The notes beneath the pieces are model-generated. The model searched no databases and was not told where the DNA came from. It saw only the letters and a program-made list of their open reading frames with translations. From Nitrosomonas sp. (GTDB lineage: Bacteria > Pseudomonadota > Gammaproteobacteria > Burkholderiales > Nitrosomonadaceae), in assembly GCA_021774265.1 (NCBI GenBank), contig JAJFJG010000063.1, positions 1 through 61,813 of the forward strand: a stretch of 61,813 bases of DNA, in the 5' to 3' direction. Of this stretch, positions 37,102-54,127 are shown in pieces. Positions within the stretch are counted from its first letter, which is position 1; each line of letters begins with the position of its first letter. Position numbers and translations under genes: made by a program.

Positions 37102-38223
37102 TCACTCTTCTTCAATTGCAAACAAACGCTGATACTCCTTAATCGCATAGCGATCCGTCATTCCAGCAATATAATCAGCAATGGCTTGATGCTTTTCTTG
37201 CTGAAATTTTATTTGATGTTTATGCGGAAGAAGCTTGATATCGGCAGCAAAAACGTTGAACAATCGTTTAATCGTATGCTGTGCTTTACCACTCATACGC
37301 ACCACATGGTAGTGCCTGTATAGATTCTCACGCAGAAATTTTTTTAGCGTTTGTTGCTCTCTTTTAATCTTGTCACTAAAACCAATTAACGGTGGCAAAG
37401 AATGCACATCTGATAAATCCTTTAAGTGCACATCATTAATATTTTGGCTGCTTTGTGTGGTTAAATCGATGGCAAGGGTATTAATCATTCGACGGATGGT
37501 TTCATGAATCTTTCGTCGATCCGCCAAACCAGGATGCTGTTTTTCAACTTGCGCCAAATGGCGAGAAAAAATTTCAACATCTTCTAATTGCGACTGGGTA
37601 ATTAACCCCGAGCGTAGGCCATCGTCCACATCATGGTTATTGTAAGCTACTTCATCAGCTAAATTAGCCAACTGTGCTTCCAGCGAAGGTCGTTTACTTT
37701 CAATGAAGCGCGCGCCAACCTCTCCAAGTTTCCGTGCATTGACTTTAGTCACATGCTTCAATATTCCTTCACGCGTTTCAAAACAAAGATTTAGTCCATC
37801 AAATGTAGCGTAACGCTCTTCCAAAACATCAACTACTCGTAAAGATTGTAAATTATGTTCAAACCCTCCGTATTCCTTCATGCATTCATCTAACGCGTCC
37901 TGACCCGCATGACCAAAGGGTGTATGGCCTAAATCATGTGCTAGCGTAATGGCCTCCACCAAATCTTCATTCAGCTGCAGATTACGTGCAATAGAACGAC
38001 CAATTTGTGCAACTTCTAAACTATGTGTTAGTCGAGTGCGAAACAGATCCCCTTCGTGATTCACAAAGACCTGAGTTTTGTATTCTAGCCGGCGAAACGC
38101 ACTCGAATGTATAATTCGATCTCGGTCACGCTGAAACTCGCTACGTCCATTCGGTGGCGTTTCAATAACTCGACGTCCCCGAGAATTCGTCGATAATACT
38201 GCGTAGGGCGCCAAATTATTCAT
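37102..38223 (-). CDS. dgt: deoxyguanosinetriphosphate triphosphohydrolase
   Basis: [53 protein letters not shown]. Confidence 0.96.
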
Positions 38224-39883
38224 GTGTGCATGCGACTACCGTTTCAGTTAATGCGTCTAGTGGTATATCTGAATACATACTGGCTTCGCCGATTCGGTTG
38301 AGCAAAATAAAACGTATTTTTCCAGCGCTGACTTTTTTATCGAGCGACATCAATTCTAGATATTTCTCTGTCGAGAATTTTGGCGCAACAACAGGTAGGC
38401 CCGTTTCTATAAATATTTTACGAATACGAAACACATCCACTTCATCGATTAAGCCAAGCCGCTTAGACAATTCGGCTGCCATAATGATACCTGTCGCAAC
38501 CGCCTCACCATGTAACCAAACCCCATAACCCATGCCATTTTCAATAGCATGGCCAAAAGTATGTCCAAGGTTTAATAATGCACGCACACCATTTTCTTTT
38601 TCATCTGCCGCAACAATTTCAGCCTTCATTTCGCAACTACGGCGAATGGCTTCGTGTAAAACGCTGGGTTCTCTGTCTAGTAGTTGTTTCATATTCTGCT
38701 CTAGCCAATCAAAGAAGCTGAGATCCCGTATCAATCCATATTTAACAACTTCAGCAATGCCAGCACGCAGCTCTCTATCAGGCAGCGTATCCAATGTTGA
38801 ACTATCCGCCAGCACTAGCTTTGGCTGGTAAAACGCACCAATCATGTTTTTACCCTGCGGATGATTGATACCTGTTTTACCACCAACGGAGGAATCAACT
38901 TGTGCAAGCAATGTCGTGGGAATCTGAATAAATGGCACGCCTCGCAGGAATGAAGCCGCAGCAAAACCTGTCAAGTCACCAACCACACCACCACCCAACG
39001 CTACAATTGTCGTGTTTCGTTCACAACGGTGAGATAGCAATGCATCAAATATTTGATTCATGGTCTCCCAGTTCTTATAGGACTCCCCGTCTGGAAGAAT
39101 AACAGGAACAGACTCCACGCCATGACGACCAAGTGATTTACGTAATTTATCCAAATAAAGCGGTGCAACCGTCATATTACTAATAATTGCCACGCGTTTC
39201 TGTGAAAGATGCGGCAAAATCAGGTCAGCTTGGTTCAATAAATTATTGCCAATATGAATAGGGTAGCTGCGTTGTTCCAGTGAGTTTACTAAATCCACAG
39301 TAATCGTTTGCATCATTTCCTTTTTCTTCTTATAAACTACAAGCTGTTGCGCCAATTTATTAACAAGATTACGAACCCCCTGTGAACTACTATCTATGAC
39401 AAGATGCGCAGCTTCACGATAAAATTCATCACGTTCAGCGAGAAGTTGAGTTAATTTGGCATGTAGGTTCTTGGTTTGGAGTAAGGGACGGTTTTTATCA
39501 TGCCGAGTGCGACGCTGCAAATCAATTACCGCAGCGCGTAGATACACAACTGTTCCATGGCGTTTTAATAAATCACGATTATTTTCACTCAAAATAGCGC
39601 CACCACCTGTTGCGAGCACAACATTATCCATTTTTACCAGCTCTTGGAGCACTTCCGTTTCGCGTCTGCGGAAACCCGTTTCCCCTTCGATATCGAAGAT
39701 AACAGGAATCTTCACTCCCGTACGCTCTTGAATTTCATGGTCAGAATCTACAAATGTTTTCCCGGTGTAATTCGCCAAAGACCTACCAATGGTCGTTTTC
39801 CCTGAACCCATCATCCCAACCAGGAAAATATTACCGTTTCCTATTTGCATTTTTTTATTAGTATAAGACGATTCCATATTCAC
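38216..39883 (-). CDS. aroKB: bifunctional shikimate kinase / 3-dehydroquinate synthase
   Basis: N-part [18 protein letters not shown] (AroK); C-part [38 protein letters not shown] (AroB) in one frame; true start may be ATG 39850. Confidence 0.93.
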
Positions 39884-44761: not shown

Positions 44762-46486
44762 TTGAAAATGCCCATCAAAATATTAACAACCGTATTAGCT
44801 TATTTATGTATTGCCTGCATGGCAACTGCTCAAGCCTCTTTAAAACTCCCAAAAACAATAAAAGTAGACCCAGAAGCGTTGACTTCAGAACCCATGTGCG
44901 ACCCTAAAATTCCTGCTTCATGGCGTGAAGCTCAAGTAATCGAAGGTGTTCAAATTCGGGAGTCACAGCGCTGCAGCCCTGACAATCCATATTTAATCGC
45001 TGCTGCAGTAAAAGGAACCAACAATATTTCTATGGGCACACTCATGGAAACTGCGTTATCTCCTGACACGATTATCAAAACTGACGATATGGACGGCGAC
45101 GGCGATCCTGACCGCATCATTATCAAACTTGAAGTGATGGAACTCAACGGCCCTTCTCCAGACTTTGAGGGACTCATTCCTACGTTTGATATCGCTCCTG
45201 GTATTCAGCCTGGAGCATGGGTATTCGCGCCAAAGACAAGCGGCATGTCAACTGAAAACTTTGAGAGTGTCAGAGCAAATGCTTTATTACGCCTACCCTC
45301 CCCGGTTATTCGTGTTGAGCAAGGTGACATTGTACAAATCGTACTAGAAAACACCCATTACTTCCCACACACTATCCATTTACACGGCGTTGATCATCCT
45401 TTCTCACATCATGGATATGGGAATGATGGCCCCACACAAACCAGTGAAATGCACTTGATGCCAGGTGAGAAGCGCATTTATGAATTTCAAGCACGCCAGA
45501 CAGGCACCATGTTTTATCACTGTCATGTGCAAACCCATACGCACTTAGCTATGGGTCTTGTCGGCATGATCATTGTCGAAGAAAACCGACCTAATAACTG
45601 GCTACAAACTTTAAATGTTGGTGCTGGTGATGTAAGACACCCATCGGTAGCAATACAAGAAGAATTCGATCACGAATACGATTTGCACTATCACGCCATG
45701 GATAAAGAACTGCATGAAATCATTCAGAAATACAATGATCCTCGGCTTATTGCACGAGACATGAATCGGCGGTATGATTTGACCGACTCAACTGAAGATT
45801 ACTTTACTCTCAATGGATTGTCGTTCCCTTATACCTTAAGAGAATCAATGATAGTAGTCGAGCCGGATCAAAAAGTAAAATTACGCGTTCTTAATAGTGG
45901 TGGCGAACTACTGGCACTGCATTCACATGGTCATAAAGCCACAATCACTCATTATGATGGCATTGAACACAATCCTATCGCACAGATTACACGTGATGTT
46001 TTCGATCTAGCTCCTGCTCAACGCGTAGACCTGACTTTGAATACAACCAATGATGGATTACATAGTTATGATGCAGGTGTCTGGTTGTTTCACGATCATC
46101 GAGAAAAAGGAATTACCACCGATGGTATGAGTGAAGGCGGAAGTATTAGTGCAATTGCATACAAATCATTCCTGAATGAGATCGGCTTCCCTACAGGAAC
46201 TCATGCTGAAAGCCTCGATTCGTATTTTACTAAAGAGTTCTACCAGAGAAAATTGCCAATATGGCAAGACCTTGATGAAGTTGGCAGTTTGGGTGCACCT
46301 GCTGGTCGAAGCCGAATAGATAGCATTGACCCAGAAACACGCACAGATATCTTCAATCTTATCTATGGATTACTAGCTGGGCTTATCCTTTATCTATTAT
46401 TCGTTAAGCGTCAGCAAGCTATACAGATTGTGCTAAGTATGACTGCTAAGCTTAAAGGCTCAAAAGGGAGCGCAAACAATGAATAA
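44762..46486 (+). CDS. periplasmic two-domain multicopper oxidase-like protein with C-terminal membrane anchor
   Basis: Signal peptide; four HxH motifs (HLH, HCH, HSH, HDH); T1 Cys only in domain 1; hydrophobic segment IFNLIYGLLAGLILYLLFV then KR; start may be ATG 44768. Confidence 0.85.
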   Translation: MKMPIKILTTVLAYLCIACMATAQASLKLPKTIKVDPEALTSEPMCDPKIPASWREAQVIEGVQIRESQRCSPDNPYLIAAAVKGTNNISMGTLMETALSPDTIIKTDDMDGDGDPDRIIIKLEVMELNGPSPDFEGLIPTFDIAPGIQPGAWVFAPKTSGMSTENFESVRANALLRLPSPVIRVEQGDIVQIVLENTHYFPHTIHLHGVDHPFSHHGYGNDGPTQTSEMHLMPGEKRIYEFQARQTGTMFYHCHVQTHTHLAMGLVGMIIVEENRPNNWLQTLNVGAGDVRHPSVAIQEEFDHEYDLHYHAMDKELHEIIQKYNDPRLIARDMNRRYDLTDSTEDYFTLNGLSFPYTLRESMIVVEPDQKVKLRVLNSGGELLALHSHGHKATITHYDGIEHNPIAQITRDVFDLAPAQRVDLTLNTTNDGLHSYDAGVWLFHDHREKGITTDGMSEGGSISAIAYKSFLNEIGFPTGTHAESLDSYFTKEFYQRKLPIWQDLDEVGSLGAPAGRSRIDSIDPETRTDIFNLIYGLLAGLILYLLFVKRQQAIQIVLSMTAKLKGSKGSANNE

Positions 46487-47447
46487 GAATCTCAGTGTTT
46501 TATTCGCAGCCATTTTACTTGTCACCGTTCAAGCTCATGCGGAGACGAAAGCTGATGCTGAGGATCATAGTGACCACAATATTGATCACAGTATGCATAA
46601 CATGGATCACAGTGAACATGACATGGATCATAGCACTCATGATATGAGTCATGACCATGACATGTCACACCATGATGGCGACGATCATGGAATAGATGAC
46701 CCTGACCATGCGGGCCATGATGCTGAAGAAGATCATGCGGATCATTCTGCGCATGGTCATGGCCATCACCACATGGATGATAGTCATATCATGGATCATG
46801 AAGGTGGCATGATTATGGGACAGAACAAGGATAAACTACCCAGCAGTTGTGACAGCATCTCTGAAGAGATTGAAATCACAGTACATGCTGGCAAGAAACA
46901 TGCTCAGGAATTTCCTGGCACAACGTTTGCCTTTGACCAACGTGAGTGGCGCGTAAAACCATGCACAAAAATTACCTGGCACTTTGTTAATGATGATGAA
47001 GTACGTCATCAATTTATGATGCACGGACTACCTAGATATCTCTACCAAAATGGCATGTTTCATTTAGAGGTCACTGGACCAAAAAAGATTTCCGGCACCA
47101 TGATAGTTCCAGCTTCCGATGAAACCTACCTGGTCCATTGCGATATTTCTCAGCATATGGAGAAAGGTATGAAAGGACAACTCGTTGTCGGCAATGGCGG
47201 TGAAGATCTACCAAGTATTCCCGGATTCACACCTTATACATTCCCAGACACTTATCCACATGAAGATTTGCCGCAAGTTTCTGATAAAGACAATGAAGAC
47301 ACCATTATAGAGCAAGTAGCAGATTTTCTTGATTCCACACCATTTCTGTCAGGCATGCTGATTATTGGATTGCTGTTAGGCGCATTAATCGCTCCACTGA
47401 TTAGCCGAATAATGGCTTTAAGGAAAAAAGACGAAATCGCTGAATAA
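46479..47447 (+). CDS. His/Asp-rich cupredoxin (type 1 copper) protein with C-terminal membrane anchor
   Basis: Signal peptide (AHA), 79-residue His-rich tract, VRHQF...HCDISQHMEKGM (C-x4-H-x4-M), C-terminal TM + RKK; overlaps the MCO stop by 8 nt. Confidence 0.82.
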   Translation: MNKNLSVLFAAILLVTVQAHAETKADAEDHSDHNIDHSMHNMDHSEHDMDHSTHDMSHDHDMSHHDGDDHGIDDPDHAGHDAEEDHADHSAHGHGHHHMDDSHIMDHEGGMIMGQNKDKLPSSCDSISEEIEITVHAGKKHAQEFPGTTFAFDQREWRVKPCTKITWHFVNDDEVRHQFMMHGLPRYLYQNGMFHLEVTGPKKISGTMIVPASDETYLVHCDISQHMEKGMKGQLVVGNGGEDLPSIPGFTPYTFPDTYPHEDLPQVSDKDNEDTIIEQVADFLDSTPFLSGMLIIGLLLGALIAPLISRIMALRKKDEIAE

Positions 47448-47518: not shown

Positions 47519-47558
47519 AAAAGCTTATCTATGCGTTAAAAAGCATAGATAAGCTTTT
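47519..47558 (+). terminator. intrinsic terminator after the copper-protein operon
   Basis: Perfect 16-bp stem AAAAGCTTATCTATGC / GCATAGATAAGCTTTT with T tract. Confidence 0.88.
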
Positions 47559-47720: not shown

Positions 47721-48224
47721 ATGCGATTAACAACAAAAGGAAGGTTTGCAGTCACTGCATTATTGGATCTTGCAATGCAAAAAGGTAACAGTCCAGTTAC
47801 GCTTTCTGATATCAGTCAACGACAAAAAATTTCACTATCTTATCTTGAACAATTATTTGCTAAACTCCGTCAATCTGAATTGGTTGGTAGTGTTCGTGGT
47901 CCAGGTGGTGGATATTGTCTCGCTAAACCATTGGATGAAGTATCGGTTGCAGATATAATTCTTGCCGTTGATGAGCCCATCGACACAACACAATGTGGCG
48001 GTAAGGAAAATTGTCTTAATGATAGCAAATGTATGACCCATGATTTATGGGCTAAACTTAATGATCTCATTTTCGATTATTTACGTGCAGTTACACTACA
48101 GCAATTGGTTGATGATCAATATATTAATATAGATGGCGACGTTGTTCCACTGTTTGATATACGCGCAGCCAATCGTGCTGCGACCAACACTACTACTACG
48201 ACCAATACTGTTAACCTAGCTTAA
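47721..48224 (+). CDS. iscR: Fe-S cluster assembly transcription regulator (Rrf2 family)
   Basis: MRLTTKGRFAV, ISLSYLEQLF, SVRGPGGGY, C-x5-C-x5-C-x2-H cluster ligands; ATG 47721 with SD GAGG (track start 47637 lies in the operator). Confidence 0.95.
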   Translation: MRLTTKGRFAVTALLDLAMQKGNSPVTLSDISQRQKISLSYLEQLFAKLRQSELVGSVRGPGGGYCLAKPLDEVSVADIILAVDEPIDTTQCGGKENCLNDSKCMTHDLWAKLNDLIFDYLRAVTLQQLVDDQYINIDGDVVPLFDIRAANRAATNTTTTTNTVNLA

Positions 48225-48397
48225 ATCACTAGATCAAGAATTGTCGTTCACTTGAACTTGATGTGAGTTAGCTTAATTTCCCTATATATGTTGTTGGATC
48301 CGGCCTAATATTATGTTCAATTTTTAAAGGCAAATTTGAACTTCTAAGATAGCCTGTTAATCAATCATCATTATGGACAATAATTGAGGTTTATACA

Positions 48398-48739
48398 GTG
48401 GGAATTACATTAACAGAAAGTGCAGCAAAACATATTCAGCAACAATTTGAAAAACGCGGCAAAGGAGTTGCTTTGCGCATCGGTATTAAGAAATCAGGTT
48501 GTTCTGGATTTAGCTATACATACGACTATGCGGATAACATAAATGAAAATGAAAAAATCTTTGAATCATGTAACACACGCATTATTGTTGACGCTGACAA
48601 TTTACCTTACTTAGACGGGTCTCAAATCGACTTTATCAAGAACGGTCTCAATAGTGCTTTTAAGTTTAACAATCCAAATATTGAGGACGCATGCGGTTGT
48701 GGCACAAGCGTTAGTTTTAAAGAGTCGGTAAGCACCTAA
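48398..48739 (+). CDS. iscA: A-type Fe-S carrier (IscA/SufA)
   Basis: GTG start; KKSGCSGFSY, FNNPN, CGCG. Confidence 0.9.
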   Translation: MGITLTESAAKHIQQQFEKRGKGVALRIGIKKSGCSGFSYTYDYADNINENEKIFESCNTRIIVDADNLPYLDGSQIDFIKNGLNSAFKFNNPNIEDACGCGTSVSFKESVST

Positions 48740-48857
48740 TTAAAAAATTTATAAAAAGATATCAGAAAATAAAAAGATATATTTAGCCTAAGTTAACAAG
48801 CGCATTGGCAAATTGAGTCTTAACTGAAAATCTCTAAAAGTTAAAGGAATAAACCAA

Positions 48858-50294
48858 ATGAGCACAGCTTTGCAAAATCTGGTTAATCAGCCGTACAAAC
48901 ATGGTTTCGTCACAGATATTGAATCAGACATTGCACCCAAAGGATTGAGTGAAGACACCATTCGACTGATTTCATCCAAAAAAAATGAACCAGAGTGGCT
49001 ACTTTCTTTTAGGTTAAAAGCCTACAATAAATGGCTAAGCATGAAAGAACCACACTGGCAAAATGTAACGCACAATAAAATTGATTTCCAAGAAATTAGC
49101 TATTATGCTGCGCCAAAGCCAAAGAAAAAACTTGCCAGTATGGATGAAGTTGATCCTGAATTACTGCGTACGTTTGAAAAATTGGGTGTACCTATGCATG
49201 AGCGAGCTGCATTGGCGGGTGTTGCTGTTGACGTTATTTTTGATAGTGTATCCGTTGCGACAACTTACAAAAAAAAATTAGCTGAAGTCGGCATCATCTT
49301 TTGCTCATTTTCTGAAGCAGTACAAGATCATCCTGAGTTAATAAAAAAATACCTTGGTACCGTTGTACCTGTCGGCGATAATTTTTACGCAGCACTTAAT
49401 TCCGCCGTATTTACCGACGGCTCATTTTGCTTCATCCCCAAGGGCGTTAAATGCCCTATGGACTTATCGACCTATTTTCGCATCAATACTGAAGAATCGG
49501 GTCAGTTCGAGCGCACCTTGATTGTTGCTGAGGAAGGCGCATCTGTCTCATATCTTGAAGGTTGTACAGCACCTCGTTTCGACACTAACCAATTACATGC
49601 AGCTGTCGTTGAATTAGTTGCATTGGATAATGCTGACATTAAATATTCAACCGTACAAAATTGGTACGCTGGAGATGAAGATGGTGTGGGTGGTATTTAT
49701 AACTTTGTGACTAAACGCGGTTTAGCTAAGGGTGTTAACTCACGCATTTCATGGACTCAAGTTGAAACAGGTTCTGCTGTTACCTGGAAATACCCATCCT
49801 GCATTTTACGCGGTGATAATTCAGTCGGCGAGTTCTATTCAGTTGCAGTTACCAACAATCACCAACAAGCTGACACTGGCACTAAAATGATACATATTGG
49901 AAAAAACACACGTAGCACTATTGTAAGCAAAGGCATCTCAGCAGGATATTCAAATAGTAGTTACCGTGGTTTGGTTAGAATCACACCCACTGCTGAGGGT
50001 GCGCGTAATTATTCACAATGTGATTCAATGTTAATCGGTGATCAATGTGGCGCTCATACTTTTCCTTATATTCAAGTGCAAAATAGTAGCGCCAAGGTTG
50101 AGCATGAAGCTTCAACATCTAAAATTGGTGAAGACCAATTATTTTACTTTTCACAGCGGGGTATTGACGCTGAAGAGGCAGTATCAATGATTATTAATGG
50201 CTTCTGTAAAGACGTATTTCAGCAGTTACCGATGGAATTTGCTGTTGAAGCTACTAAATTACTAAGTTTTAAGCTTGAGGGAAGTGTTGGATGA
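48858..50294 (+). CDS. sufB: Fe-S cluster assembly protein SufB
   Basis: [48 protein letters not shown]. Confidence 0.98.
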
Positions 50295-51085
50295 TTAATC
50301 AAAACAGCAAAATATTACTTGAAATACGTGGATTACACGCAACCATCAATAACGTTGAAGTTTTAAAAGGTATTGATCTCACTATTAAGAGTGGCGAGAT
50401 TCATGCCATTATGGGTATTAACGGATCAGGCAAAAGCACACTTGCCAAGGTATTAGCGGGTCACTCTGCCTATGAAGTTACCGCAGGTAATGTCTTATTT
50501 GAAGGAAAGGATTTATTTGAGCTAGCACCAGAAGAACGTGCGCGCGCAGGTATTTTTCTTGCTTTTCAATACCCCATTGAAATACCGGGTGTCGCGAACA
50601 ATCAATTTCTCAGATTGGCCTACAACACAGTGCAATCAGAGCGAGGCAAAGAAGAGTTGGATCCACTTGAGTTTGATGATTTTGTTCGTGAGAAAATGAA
50701 GCTACTTGAAATGAACCCAGACTTCTTAGATCGCAGTGTTAACGAAGGTTTCTCTGGCGGCGAAAAAAAACGTAATGAAATATTACAAATGGCATTACTT
50801 GAACCACGCATCAGTATTCTTGATGAAACTGATTCTGGCCTTGACATTGATGCGTTAAGAGTTGTCGCAAATGGCGTCAATCAAATCACCAATGCAGATA
50901 ACGCAACTTTGCTTGTTACACATTACCAACGTTTACTTGACTATATCGTGCCTGACTTTGTACATGTTATGGAAGCTGGCCGCATCATTAAAACAGGTGG
51001 AAAAGAACTTGCTTTAGAACTAGAAACTCGTGGCTATGATTGGGTAAGTAAAGAAAACAATATTCTCGCAGGAGCAGCATCATGA
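50291..51085 (+). CDS. sufC: Fe-S cluster assembly ATPase SufC
   Basis: [44 protein letters not shown]. Confidence 0.98.
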
Positions 51086-52389
51086 ATGGAGCTGTCCGTG
51101 ATGACTATCTCAGCCATTTACTCCAATCCTGGCACAAACCATCATCCAGTACCCTACCCTGGTTAAACCAGCTTCGAACCGAAGCGGTTGATTGTGTCAG
51201 CACACTGAGAGTACCCACGGCGAAAGATGAAGAATGGCGTTTCACCAACATCGCATCACTGACTAAGTTACCATTCCAAGAAGCGCATAATACATCAGAA
51301 TTCAGCCCAACAGATATTGAGCACTTTTATCTGCCTGAGGCGACAACTCGACTAGTTTTTGTTGATGGACAATATGCGCCTCAGTTATCAAATAACACTA
51401 ATGAAGACGATGTTATTGCTGGTAATTTATCAACATTGGCAAACAGCCACTCCGCGCAGATATCGCTGCATCTTGGACAGCACACTGATTTCAGAAATAA
51501 TGTATTTGCTGCACTTAATACTACCTTCCTTAAGGATAGTGCAGTTGTTATCATTCCACGTAACACGACTACCAACGCACCAATTCATTTATTATTTATC
51601 GCGACACAACAAGAAGTAACTAACTATCCACGTTGCTTGTTAATTGCTGAGCCCAATAGCCAAGCCGTCATAATTGAGGATTATGTCGCGCTACACAATT
51701 TAATTTATGTCACAAACTCAGTTACTGAAGTCAGTCTTGCTAATAATGCACACATCAATCACATTCGCATACAGCGCGATAGCGACAAAGCTTTTCACAT
51801 AGCAGATTGTTCTGTGTCACAAGAACGATCAAGCCATTATCAATCAATGAATGTTGCATTAGGTGCAAATATCTCCCGGCTTAGTCTAAATATTCATTTA
51901 GAAGATGAAGGTGCAGAATGCACAGTTGATGGTTTAGCGTTGATTAAAGGTCAGCAGCTTGCCGACACTCATACGTTTATCAATCATGCAAAACCTAACG
52001 GCACCAGCCGTCAATTACATAAATGTATTGTTGGTGGTGAAGCTCATGCGGTATTCAATGGTCGCATAATGGTTCGTCCAAATGCTCAGAGCACTGATTC
52101 CACTCAATCCAACCGGAATTTATTATTAACAAACAAAGCACAAGTTAATACAAAACCACAGCTTGAGATTTTTGCTGATGATGTGAAATGCGCGCATGGC
52201 GCAACTGTGGGTCAACTAGATAATGAAGAGATCTTTTATTTAAGAAGTCGTGGCTTTCCCGAGATTGATGCTCGCAATTTGCTAACTTACGCATTTGGCG
52301 CCGAGATTATTAATCGCGTCCCAGTAGCCTCACTAAAGAAACAACTTGAGCAAACAGTACTCAAGCATACTCAGAGTACTGCCTTATGA
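51082..52389 (+). CDS. sufD: Fe-S cluster assembly protein SufD
   Basis: [39 protein letters not shown]. Confidence 0.96.
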
Positions 52390-53645
52390 ACGTCATAAAT
52401 GCCACCGTGCCAACACCAGTACAAGCGGCTAGAGAAATAGAATCTTTTCGTAACGACTTCCCTATTCTTAAGCTCAAAATTAATGAGAAACCATTAATCT
52501 ATCTTGATAGCGCAGCGTCCAGCCAAATGCCGCAGGTCGTCATTGACCGGCTGGTGCAGTATCAAACATCGCAACACGCCAACATTAATCGCGCTGTTTA
52601 TGAGTTGTCTGAAATTGCCACATCTGAATATGAAGGGGCAAGACGCAAATTACAGCGCTTTATTAACGCACGTGAAGACCGTGAAGTAATTTTTACCAGT
52701 GGCACAACGGATTCGATCAATCTGGTCATGCATGGATATGGGCGTAAGTTCTTTAAAGCTAATGATGAAATAATCTTAACCACTCTAGAACACCATTCTA
52801 ATATCGTACCATGGCAAATGTTAGCTGATGAAACTGGCGCAAAAATACGTGTTGTCCCTGCCAACGAAGATGGTGAGCTCTTAATTGGTGAATATAAGAA
52901 ACTCTTTAATGAGCGAACTAAATTTGTCAGTTTAATCCATGTCTCAAATGCACTCGGCACAATTAACCCAGTTAAGGAAATGATCGCGATTGCACATGAG
53001 CATCAAGTTCCAGTACTGATTGATGGGGCACAGGCTGCGCCACATATGACTGTTGATGTTCAAGACTTAGACTGTGATTTTTATTGCTTTTCTGCGCATA
53101 AACTTTACGGACCAACTGGTGTTGGCATGTTGTATGGAAAAGCGAAATTGCTTGAATCAATGCAGCCCTTCAAAGGTGGCGGTGACATGATCGCATCCGT
53201 CACATTTGAAGAAACGCTTTACACTACCATTCCACACAAATTTGAGGCGGGAACACCACCTATCGCAGCCGCCATTGGATTTGGATCTGCCATTGATTAT
53301 TTATTATCGATTGGATTAGACAAAATCAGCGACTACGAGAATGAGTTACTTAATTACGCCACTGAACAAATAAATGATTTAGCTGGTGTACGCATTATTG
53401 GAACGGCCAAAAATAAAACTGGCGTTTTATCATTTGTTATTGATGGTATTCACCCTCACGACATTGGAACCTTATTAAATGAAGAAGGTATTGCTGTACG
53501 TACCGGTCACCACTGTGCTCAACCGATCATGCAACGTTATAACATACCAGCCACATCACGTGCTTCATTTGCGTTTTACAATAATAAAACTGAAGTTGAT
53601 GCTTTAATCAAAGGCATCCATTCCGTGCAAAAGGTTTTCTCATGA
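52386..53645 (+). CDS. sufS: cysteine desulfurase (group II)
   Basis: YLDSAASSQ, EHHSNIVPW, FSAHK (PLP Lys), RTGHHCAQP. Confidence 0.96.
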   Translation: MNVINATVPTPVQAAREIESFRNDFPILKLKINEKPLIYLDSAASSQMPQVVIDRLVQYQTSQHANINRAVYELSEIATSEYEGARRKLQRFINAREDREVIFTSGTTDSINLVMHGYGRKFFKANDEIILTTLEHHSNIVPWQMLADETGAKIRVVPANEDGELLIGEYKKLFNERTKFVSLIHVSNALGTINPVKEMIAIAHEHQVPVLIDGAQAAPHMTVDVQDLDCDFYCFSAHKLYGPTGVGMLYGKAKLLESMQPFKGGGDMIASVTFEETLYTTIPHKFEAGTPPIAAAIGFGSAIDYLLSIGLDKISDYENELLNYATEQINDLAGVRIIGTAKNKTGVLSFVIDGIHPHDIGTLLNEEGIAVRTGHHCAQPIMQRYNIPATSRASFAFYNNKTEVDALIKGIHSVQKVFS

Positions 53646-54127
53646 TAAATGCAAAATCACTTTATCAAGAGGTCATTCTTGACCACAACAGAAAGCCACG
53701 CAATTATGGTGCCCTAAATGAAGCCAGTCACCATGCAGTTGGTCACAACCCACTATGTGGAGATCGTTTAAATATTGAGTTTAATCTTGAAGGTCAGTAT
53801 ATTAACGAAATTGCATTTCAAGGTGAATCTTGCGCGATTTGTAAAGCTTCTGCTTCTATGATGACCACTGCGGTTAAAGGCAAAACATGTTTAGATGTCG
53901 AAACACTCATACAAGAATTTCGTGATATGGCAACGGGAAAGCTCAGTTTGGAAGACCCACATCACCTGGGTCGATTAACTATTTTCTCCAACATTAGAGA
54001 TCTGCCAACACGTGTTAAATGCGCGATTCTCCCATGGCACACACTACATGCCGCTCTTCATTCTGAAACAAGCACGTCTACCGAAGCAGAGAATGATCCA
54101 GTGCAATCTTCAACTGATACAGCCTAA
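53642..54127 (+). CDS. sufU: SUF system NifU-like sulfur-transfer protein
   Basis: LYQEVILDH, NPLCGD, CAICKASAS, RVKCAILPW. Confidence 0.93.
   Translation: MINAKSLYQEVILDHNRKPRNYGALNEASHHAVGHNPLCGDRLNIEFNLEGQYINEIAFQGESCAICKASASMMTTAVKGKTCLDVETLIQEFRDMATGKLSLEDPHHLGRLTIFSNIRDLPTRVKCAILPWHTLHAALHSETSTSTEAENDPVQSSTDTA

Follow-up and report, generated by a model that had tools for sequence, protein, structure and literature searches.

A membrane-anchored type C multicopper oxidase of Nitrosomonas and its cupredoxin partner, a probable accessory of copper monooxygenases

We analysed a 61,813-nucleotide stretch of DNA of Nitrosomonas sp. (contig JAJFJG010000063.1, assembly GCA_021774265.1; hereafter the window), in which two overlapping genes encode a multicopper oxidase and a cupredoxin, both with a predicted membrane anchor. 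The two proteins carry complete sets of copper ligands, they stay together, and they track copper membrane monooxygenases across lineages. On every feature that can be tested in its sequence, the oxidase is a type C two-domain multicopper oxidase, of a distinct anchored and partner-coupled variant that is probably an accessory of these monooxygenases. With respect to function, we judge the chances to be evenly balanced that the pair, tethered to the membrane on the periplasmic side, oxidises Cu(I) and buffers copper for the monooxygenase of the host, i.e. ammonia monooxygenase (AMO) in Nitrosomonas.

Distribution of the pair and its link to copper monooxygenases

A phyletic profile, proposed in the initial annotation of this DNA, ties the oxidase to ammonia and methane oxidisers. 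It is encoded in 82 of 105 other genomes of the genus Nitrosomonas (83/106 with the present one), in none of 49 genomes of three sister genera (including the unpublished genome G152), and in 195 of 201 genomes of Methylococcales, the order of a Methylomicrobium genome. Within the class Binatia, 39 of 251 genomes contain the oxidase and 54 contain pmoB; all 39 carriers have pmoB, 36 of them within 3 kb of the oxidase gene, and the 197 genomes devoid of pmoB contain no oxidase. An evenly drawn sample of 400 genomes of the window's own class (one of them unscored) gave 14 with the oxidase, 15 with pmoB and 13 with both (among these the unpublished G690); the exceptions are G970 (oxidase only) and G918 and G923 (pmoB only). 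Finally, 38 of 48 non-Nitrosomonas genomes (those of the 54 non-Nitrosomonas loci described below, minus six with pmoB inside the locus) were positive for pmoB, and eight of the ten misses are metagenome-assembled genomes (MAGs) labelled Methylococcales. The genomes behind these co-occurrence counts include kin that are not independent, so that the figures represent only a few lineages; the surveys by genome cover the family and class of the window, Methylococcales and Binatia.

The gene neighbourhood was compared in 80 loci (26 from Nitrosomonas, 54 from other hosts), kept from at least 198 confirmed in a genome scan. A PmoD-like gene is present in 39 of the 54 non-Nitrosomonas loci, directly upstream of the oxidase in 37, and in none of the 26 from Nitrosomonas; the gene is so named because of its position after pmoB, its two Cys residues and a weak similarity to 6CPD (E 0.085). 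The close linkage to monooxygenase genes seen in 36 of the 39 Binatia carriers is likewise not found in the Nitrosomonas loci. The usual order in Binatia (L069, L071, L123-L142) is pmoCAB, the pmoD-like gene, oxidase and cupredoxin, often followed by a gene for a pyrroloquinoline quinone (PQQ) dehydrogenase or a luciferase-like monooxygenase.

Hydroxylamine-oxidising HAO was also sought in the 39 Binatia carriers. No HAO-family match came from 37 of them and only weak partial ones from the other two, so the pair is distributed with the copper monooxygenase and not with HAO. Judged by the names of homologues, the window belongs to Nitrosomonas. In the assembly that contains it, amoA and hao were not found; there are four AmoD-like ORFs and, at a contig edge, a 31-residue end of amoB, a fragment that suggests collapsed repeats (two complete genomes of the genus carry three hao copies each). 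No relative was found on viral contigs, and plasmids yielded no match at E 1e-30 to P0125, a fused oxidase-cupredoxin of Natrinema.

The adjacency of PmoD and an oxidase is already partly in print (the papers are cited here from excerpts), the oxidase being named there as a neighbour only and never assayed; the new point is the distribution of the pair with the copper monooxygenase. Some PmoD classes lie near multicopper oxidases (PMC6189053). In the first 17 of 29 rows of that study (Fisher et al. 2018), oxidases of 560-590 aa with one or two membrane helices adjoin pmoD, and the hosts among the matches listed are Methylococcus (MCA2129), Methylocaldum, Methylomarinum, Cycloclasticus and verrucomicrobial strains. 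The adjacency of MCA2130 to an oxidase was also noted in PMC6688271. In copper-limited cells of Methylococcus capsulatus Bath producing soluble methane monooxygenase (sMMO), the fold changes reported are -2.35 for MCA2129, -3.94 for its pmoD neighbour MCA2130 and about -7 for pmoB, compared with +16.8 for CopC and +16.4 for MopE (PMC4831470). The unit therefore goes with particulate methane monooxygenase (pMMO) and against the copper-scavenging genes. We found no paper characterising the oxidase-cupredoxin pair, in a search mostly outside subscription papers, so that older work on MCA2129/MCA2130 may discuss it; the excerpts of PMC4688376 and PMC6769254 contain nothing on this oxidase family, and those of a 2026 review of AMO (PMC13058606) mention multicopper oxidases for archaea only.

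The gene unit and its two proteins

The oxidase ORF (44762..46486, forward strand) starts with TTG and encodes 574 aa; residues are numbered below in the 572-aa form that starts with the ATG at 44768, where the homologues begin. The cupredoxin ORF (46479..47447, forward strand; 322 aa) overlaps it by 8 nt. Both ORFs are real and are followed by a hairpin at 47519-47558 (16 pairs and a T tail, -22.9 kcal/mol, z -9.4, none of 200 shuffled sequences being equally stable), which confirms the two-gene unit with its own terminator described initially. A scan for sigma-70 promoters gave 13 sites where 11.7 were expected. The signal peptides and C-terminal membrane helices earlier assigned to both proteins are supported by hydropathy, each protein having a hydrophobic N-terminus, with cleavage judged from the letters, and a single C-terminal hydrophobic segment, which is helical in both predicted models. 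The features of the unit are as follows:

44768..46486, +: type C two-domain multicopper oxidase, 572 aa from ATG (574 aa from TTG at 44762); sequence and fold matches
44768..44836, +: predicted Sec-type signal peptide of the oxidase, ending in AQA, without twin-arginine motif; sequence, hydropathy
44837..45112, +: N-terminal extension of the oxidase, in which the invariant C44 and C69 probably form a disulfide and the DxDGDGDPD motif of residues 107-115 is likely a Ca-binding loop; alignment
45356..45385, +: His197 (candidate substrate-metal ligand, four before the type 1 (T1) His), T1 His201, cluster His204 and His206; alignment
45518..45559, +: H251-C252-H253, T1 His259, conserved Met262, axial-position Leu264; alignment
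45920..45934, +: domain 2 cluster His385 and His387 (plus His389), T1 His position absent; alignment
46091..46099, +: H442-D443-H444, domain 2 without T1 cysteine; alignment
46349..46405, +: predicted C-terminal membrane helix of the oxidase; hydropathy, model
46479..47447, +: partner cupredoxin, 322 aa, 8-nt overlap with the oxidase stop; ORF, model
46560..46817, +: disordered His/Asp/Met-rich tail of the cupredoxin (24 His), ending in the conserved Met-rich motif M105-M113; alignment, model
46848..47195, +: cupredoxin domain with T1 ligands H177, C221, H226 and M231, extra conserved H182 and H220, invariant C124 and C162; alignment, model
47340..47414, +: predicted C-terminal membrane helix of the cupredoxin; hydropathy, model
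47519..47558, +: intrinsic-terminator-like hairpin closing the unit; folding against shuffles

The type C pattern recognised initially is borne out. Pfam places multicopper-oxidase domains in the protein, which has two cupredoxin domains; the nearest solved proteins by sequence are 2ZWN (E 1e-29) and 3G5W (E 7e-29), and the nearest by fold (VIA-align) are 2ZWN (Z 21.0), 3GDC (Z 20.4) and 9CCK (Z 19.2), the fold matches being made with a weak, monomer-only model (mean pLDDT 62, below 50 at residues 255-262). All four predicted HxH-type motifs of the trinuclear cluster are present (H204/H206, H251-C252-H253, H385/H387 and H442-D443-H444), and their eight His are invariant in 50 of 50 aligned members. 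Domain 1 alone has a T1 site, as had been stated, formed by H201, C252 and H259 (H259 rather than H257, because the latter varies among homologues); domain 2 has D443 in place of the T1 Cys and L382 at the T1 His position. By alignment, Leu264 takes the axial position, matching the Gly-Met methionine of 2ZWN and 3G5W, in a loop where the model is poor. Leu is found there in 143 of 145 family members and Met in two. It is no special feature but ordinary here: of 150 related representatives in the branch, 72 have the motif, 46 of them with Leu and 26 with Met. A His four residues before the T1 His (His197) occurs in 145 of 145 family members, and a Met directly before Gly-Leu (Met262) in 143. 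For D305-H307-H309, the idea of a further metal site, invariant and linked to the presence of the partner, was rejected, H309 often being Gln in paired loci too.

The partner model contains a disordered N-terminal tail, a confident cupredoxin domain over residues 110-250 and a C-terminal helix; its fold matches include 4HCF (Z 11.9) and auracyanin B (Z 11.7). In both fold and His-Cys-His-Met ligand set, the model and alignment agree with single-domain T1 cupredoxins, and the His/Met ligands are kept in 132 of 136 sequences. Two further His are conserved, H182 (128/136) and H220 (135/136). They correspond to the H-x4-H and H-C motifs in domain 1 of nitrite reductase, whose His residues presumably bind the catalytic copper of that enzyme. 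A Met-rich motif of 14 residues (2-5 Met) precedes the domain in 136 of 137 sequences. The tail of about 80 residues is rich in His, Asp and Met, with a median of 25 His in 42 Nitrosomonas sequences compared with 3 in 44 others.

The two genes are co-conserved, as expected of a dedicated partner. The cupredoxin gene follows that of the oxidase in 16 of 16 relative loci with downstream DNA and adjoins it in 69 of the 80 loci of the genome scan; of the remaining 11, four end in or just after the oxidase. The idea that "solo" oxidases have lost their partner was ruled out, as all nine genomes checked have a cupredoxin elsewhere, mostly inside a pmoD-cupredoxin-VTT cluster, and five genomes negative for the oxidase also lack the cupredoxin. 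Both proteins are fused in seven representatives (P0123, P0124, P0125, P0131, P0136, P0137 and P0138). CusF copper-chaperone domains are added in P0136-P0138 and in two metagenome fusions, and P0121 joins a PmoD-like domain to the oxidase. Archaeal-looking members (P0122-P0125 and P0133; P0125 is from Natrinema, and others are named PGF-CTERM proteins) also fuse oxidase and cupredoxin. In some Methylococcales (L111-L121) the oxidase gene has moved out of the pmoD-cupredoxin cluster, and many carry a second oxidase-cupredoxin pair.

Relatives, known systems and surrounding genes

In a quick tree, the family forms one clade (51 rows, SH-aLRT 99), separate from both the nirK-cluster blue copper oxidases and the CopA-like oxidases. 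The tree suggested in the initial annotation thus places the protein outside the CopA/CueO detoxification clade, and it is not an orthologue of CueO, CopA, NirK or the blue copper oxidase. No NCBIfam family reaches its own cut-off with it (39 vs 525 for CueO, 53 vs 479 for CopA, 46 vs 296 for NirK). It has neither the three domains or last-domain T1 site of the CueO/CopA class nor copper export neighbours, and carries a full trinuclear ligand set instead of the mononuclear type 2 site of NirK (NirK of this genome is encoded on another contig). The blue copper oxidases of the 3G5W type, with a Met axial ligand and an NsrR, cytochrome c and nirK neighbourhood that the present protein lacks, fall into a clade of their own (L020-L022 and L029, with NsrR-like and cytochrome c neighbours). 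The Nitrosomonas oxidases nest among those of Methylococcales (support 99/98 with L043; AU p 0.0005), although without L073 and L078 the alternative is no longer rejected (p 0.08); the groups were named after the first tree had been seen, and none of the sequences in the set was identified as Nitrosococcus. A transfer into Nitrosomonas out of Methylococcales is therefore a lead at most. MCO4 sequences are absent from the trees.

The type C oxidases mgLAC (2ZWN), the blue copper oxidase of Nitrosomonas europaea (3G5W) and 3GDC share with the present protein the two cupredoxin domains, the T1 site in domain 1 only, HDH in domain 2 and the eight cluster His. The latter is about 250 residues longer than these, with an N-terminal Cys/Asp-rich extension, a helical insert in domain 2 and a C-terminal anchor; it also differs from 2ZWN and 3G5W in Leu for the axial Met and in a dedicated partner gene. 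Another ammonia oxidiser, Nitrosopumilus maritimus, has a similar combination of a two-domain oxidase and an extra T1 cupredoxin in Nmar_1354 (MCO4, PDB 9CCK), but as one chain, whereas the present pair is split (and fused only in the seven relatives), and with Met as axial ligand at both sites. Nmar_1354 has been described as a two-domain oxidase with a pendant T1 cupredoxin, of a lineage unique to archaeal ammonia oxidisers (PMC11761707).

CueO of Escherichia coli offers an analogy in mode of action, as a Met/His-rich copper-collecting region beside its T1 site (T1 His presumably His443) feeds the trinuclear cluster; it is, however, a soluble three-domain monomer, whereas in the present pair a second, anchored protein carries the metal-rich region. 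The cupredoxin resembles CopI of Rubrivivax gelatinosus in layout only, the latter being a copper-buffering cupredoxin (PMC13308877) described, in the excerpts, without an oxidase partner or membrane anchor. PmoD/AmoD and CopCD of the pmo/amo operons are likewise membrane-anchored periplasmic copper proteins linked to the monooxygenase, to which the present module would add a predicted O2-reducing centre. The pair co-occurs with the enzyme in the manner of copper monooxygenase accessory proteins.

[quoted passage not shown] Such a pair diverges from the oxidase in 22 of the 26 loci of Nitrosomonas; the pump clears the multidrug cut-off and not that of CusA. Downstream, 47721-54127 (+) contains iscR and a suf-type operon. 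This adjacency was considered as an iron link and rejected, since it is not conserved, being limited to five Nitrosomonas loci (L001, L004, L064, L066 and L085). No cop or cus gene recurs as a neighbour among the loci compared. In Methylococcales (L031-L041, L107, L111-L120) the cupredoxin is followed by a VTT/DedA-like protein of about 140 aa (25/80 loci) and by a protein of about 255 aa without Pfam or NCBIfam match (15 loci); both are candidates for a membrane copper carrier. In the N. eutropha lineage (L070:9118, L074:9193) the pair lies in a different locus and precedes a gene that contains a cytochrome oxidase subunit II domain. Further upstream in the window (38216-39883, -), a 555-aa ORF apparently joins shikimate kinase and dehydroquinate synthase, as read from its sequence; similar long ORFs recur in Nitrosomonas loci.

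Two other oxidases are encoded in the same genome: a CueO-like three-domain protein with HYH for the expected HCH, and hence no T1 cysteine (G000:C176:4646-6289, -), and a second small two-domain oxidase on a long branch, whose domain 1 has HSH and domain 2 HCH (G000:C203:10813-11898, -). Elsewhere, L090:561-2805 (labelled Methylohalobius), P0127 and P0128 are degenerate full-length paralogues devoid of the T1 Cys and most cluster His, and may be pseudo-enzymes; the cupredoxin after L090 also lacks its T1 motif.

Possible function of the pair

Since the pair tracks the monooxygenase, often directly behind its genes, it may well oxidise and buffer copper for that enzyme. Cu(I) is suggested as the substrate because soft His/Met ligands flank both T1 sites, and because of the CusF and PmoD partners. 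Type C oxidases are trimers with trinuclear clusters between the subunits, and reduce O2 to water; the present oxidase would do the same. The His/Met-rich segments of the cupredoxin, together with His197/Met262 next to the T1 site of the oxidase, would capture Cu(I), and electrons would pass from the cupredoxin T1 to the oxidase T1 and on to O2. More speculatively, Cu(II) might then be handed to PmoD/AmoD- or CopC-type carriers and by these to the monooxygenase, and the reaction might also hold toxic Cu(I) low in a copper-hungry periplasm. We count in favour of this copper reading the co-occurrence with pmoB, the PmoD-like neighbour and fusion, the CusF fusions, the tail, the expression of MCA2129 and the His/Met residues, those beside the oxidase T1 being taken as support because CueO binds its substrate copper via Asp439 and Met441 (PMC6155172).

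Several points weigh against it. The pair is dispensable, being missing from 23 of 105 same-genus and all 49 sister-genus genomes; 15 of the 54 pmoB-positive Binatia lack the oxidase; and carrier G970, together with two MAGs not labelled Methylococcales, gave no pmoB match. There is no amo or amoD-like neighbour in the window or in the 26 Nitrosomonas loci. The possibility that the pair and CopC replace each other was ruled out, as CopC is present in 101 of 105 same-genus genomes. The CusF fusions belong to a sister subclade, the long His tail is specific to Nitrosomonas, and the His and Met beside the T1 site recur often in proteins outside the family (in 25 and 29, respectively, of about 41). 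MCA2129 is likely an orthologue by length, architecture and synteny rather than by alignment, and expression with pMMO fits the rival readings equally. Lastly, activity, metal binding and contact between the two proteins are predictions.

All copper monooxygenases form hydroxylamine from ammonia. Among the rivals, it is conceivable, though rather unlikely, that the pair removes this product in the way of Nmar_1354, using O2 to oxidise it to HNO, with the cupredoxin standing in for the pendant domain. That protein has the same architecture unsplit and gave the third-best fold match (9CCK; rmsd 3.9, 248 aligned), the 37 Binatia carriers without an HAO-family match would lack the usual sink, and expression with pMMO is compatible; but Nmar_1354 is only a distant sequence match (phmmer E about 3e-11), and the reaction would waste the energy substrate in Nitrosomonas. 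The PmoD link, the CusF fusions, the His/Met tail and the fusions in haloarchaea such as Natrinema (P0125), which to our knowledge have no monooxygenase, would also be left unexplained. Moreover, Nmar_1354 itself is slow on NH2OH (KM 22 mM), with Met at both T1 sites (PMC11761707). An uncoupled electron sink, in which cytochrome c, quinol or PmoD would feed the cupredoxin, the oxidase and then O2 to poise the redox state around the monooxygenase or re-oxidise its copper sites, is doubtful. The step from a Met-axial to a Leu-axial T1 site would be plausibly downhill, potentials being inferred, a few loci (L070, L147 and L170) have terminal-oxidase genes near the pair, and the distant relative P0140 has a fused cytochrome c; no cytochrome gene is, however, among the conserved neighbours, reducing power would be wasted in energy-limited cells, and the His/Met segments and CusF fusions would again go unexplained.

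Plain copper resistance, i.e. CueO- or CopI-like Cu(I) detoxification kept by copper-rich cells with no loading of the monooxygenase, would account for the same His/Met features, the lack of amo linkage in Nitrosomonas and the higher expression with copper in M. capsulatus (PMC4831470). We consider it improbable: the oxidase is nearly absent from genomes without the monooxygenase (1/385 in the class sample, 0/197 in Binatia) and sits directly behind pmoB, it lies in a clade apart from the CopA-like oxidases, conserved cop/cus neighbours are missing and the adjacent RND pump is of the multidrug type, not CusA. A ferroxidase or manganese oxidase is a still fainter prospect; the iscR-suf operon that follows the pair in the window, Fet3p and ceruloplasmin among the sequence matches and one source labelling a homologue "manganese oxidase" are countered by the rarity of that adjacency, by the lack of an iron permease as a recurring neighbour and by the conserved residues beside T1, which are His and Met rather than carboxylates. 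Least probable of all is the sought oxidase of nitric oxide (NO) that would complete ammonia oxidation after HAO. The cupredoxin does keep the His at the H-x4-H and H-C positions which we take to bind the catalytic copper in nitrite reductase, but the pair is absent from the sister genera and does not track HAO, and is therefore not a core NO oxidase: it is missing from 72 of 154 other family genomes and present in HAO-less Binatia. In addition, a "copper oxidase" found only in N. ureae, which is probably the orthologue (P0073), makes up 0.019% of the proteome, compared with 0.93% for HAO and 2.27% for nitrosocyanin (PMC5960693). Of the dedicated periplasmic electron-transfer module for metal or nitrogen-oxide chemistry envisaged initially, the metal part thus stands, copper being more likely than iron or manganese, and the nitrogen-oxide part is weakened by the link to the copper monooxygenase rather than HAO and by these absences.

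An extended form of the Cu(I) oxidase and copper buffer reading, which we put forward tentatively and do not expect to hold, is that PmoD, oxidase and cupredoxin might together constitute a conserved machine of three proteins that loads copper into pMMO/AMO, and thereby one of the missing maturation factors. The cupredoxin would then be a detached catalytic domain that could bind and oxidise substrate copper at His182/His220, ligands of the nitrite reductase type with a His-Cys bridge to T1, and pass the electron to the oxidase.

The module is built from known parts, has been partly noted in print and is dispensable in many ammonia oxidisers. It nevertheless joins a copper enzyme predicted to reduce O2 with a dedicated partner, occurs in nearly all gammaproteobacterial methanotrophs, follows pmoB directly in Binatia and is retained in most Nitrosomonas, with a probable locus in a tractable model strain (MCA2129). 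The copper supply of pMMO and AMO, and the accessory proteins required for their full activity, are open questions (PMC6189053, PMC13058606). If the copper reading is true, the pair would bear on the copper supply to the enzyme, and if the hydroxylamine alternative is true, on a new route to N2O; both would matter for methane and ammonia oxidation.

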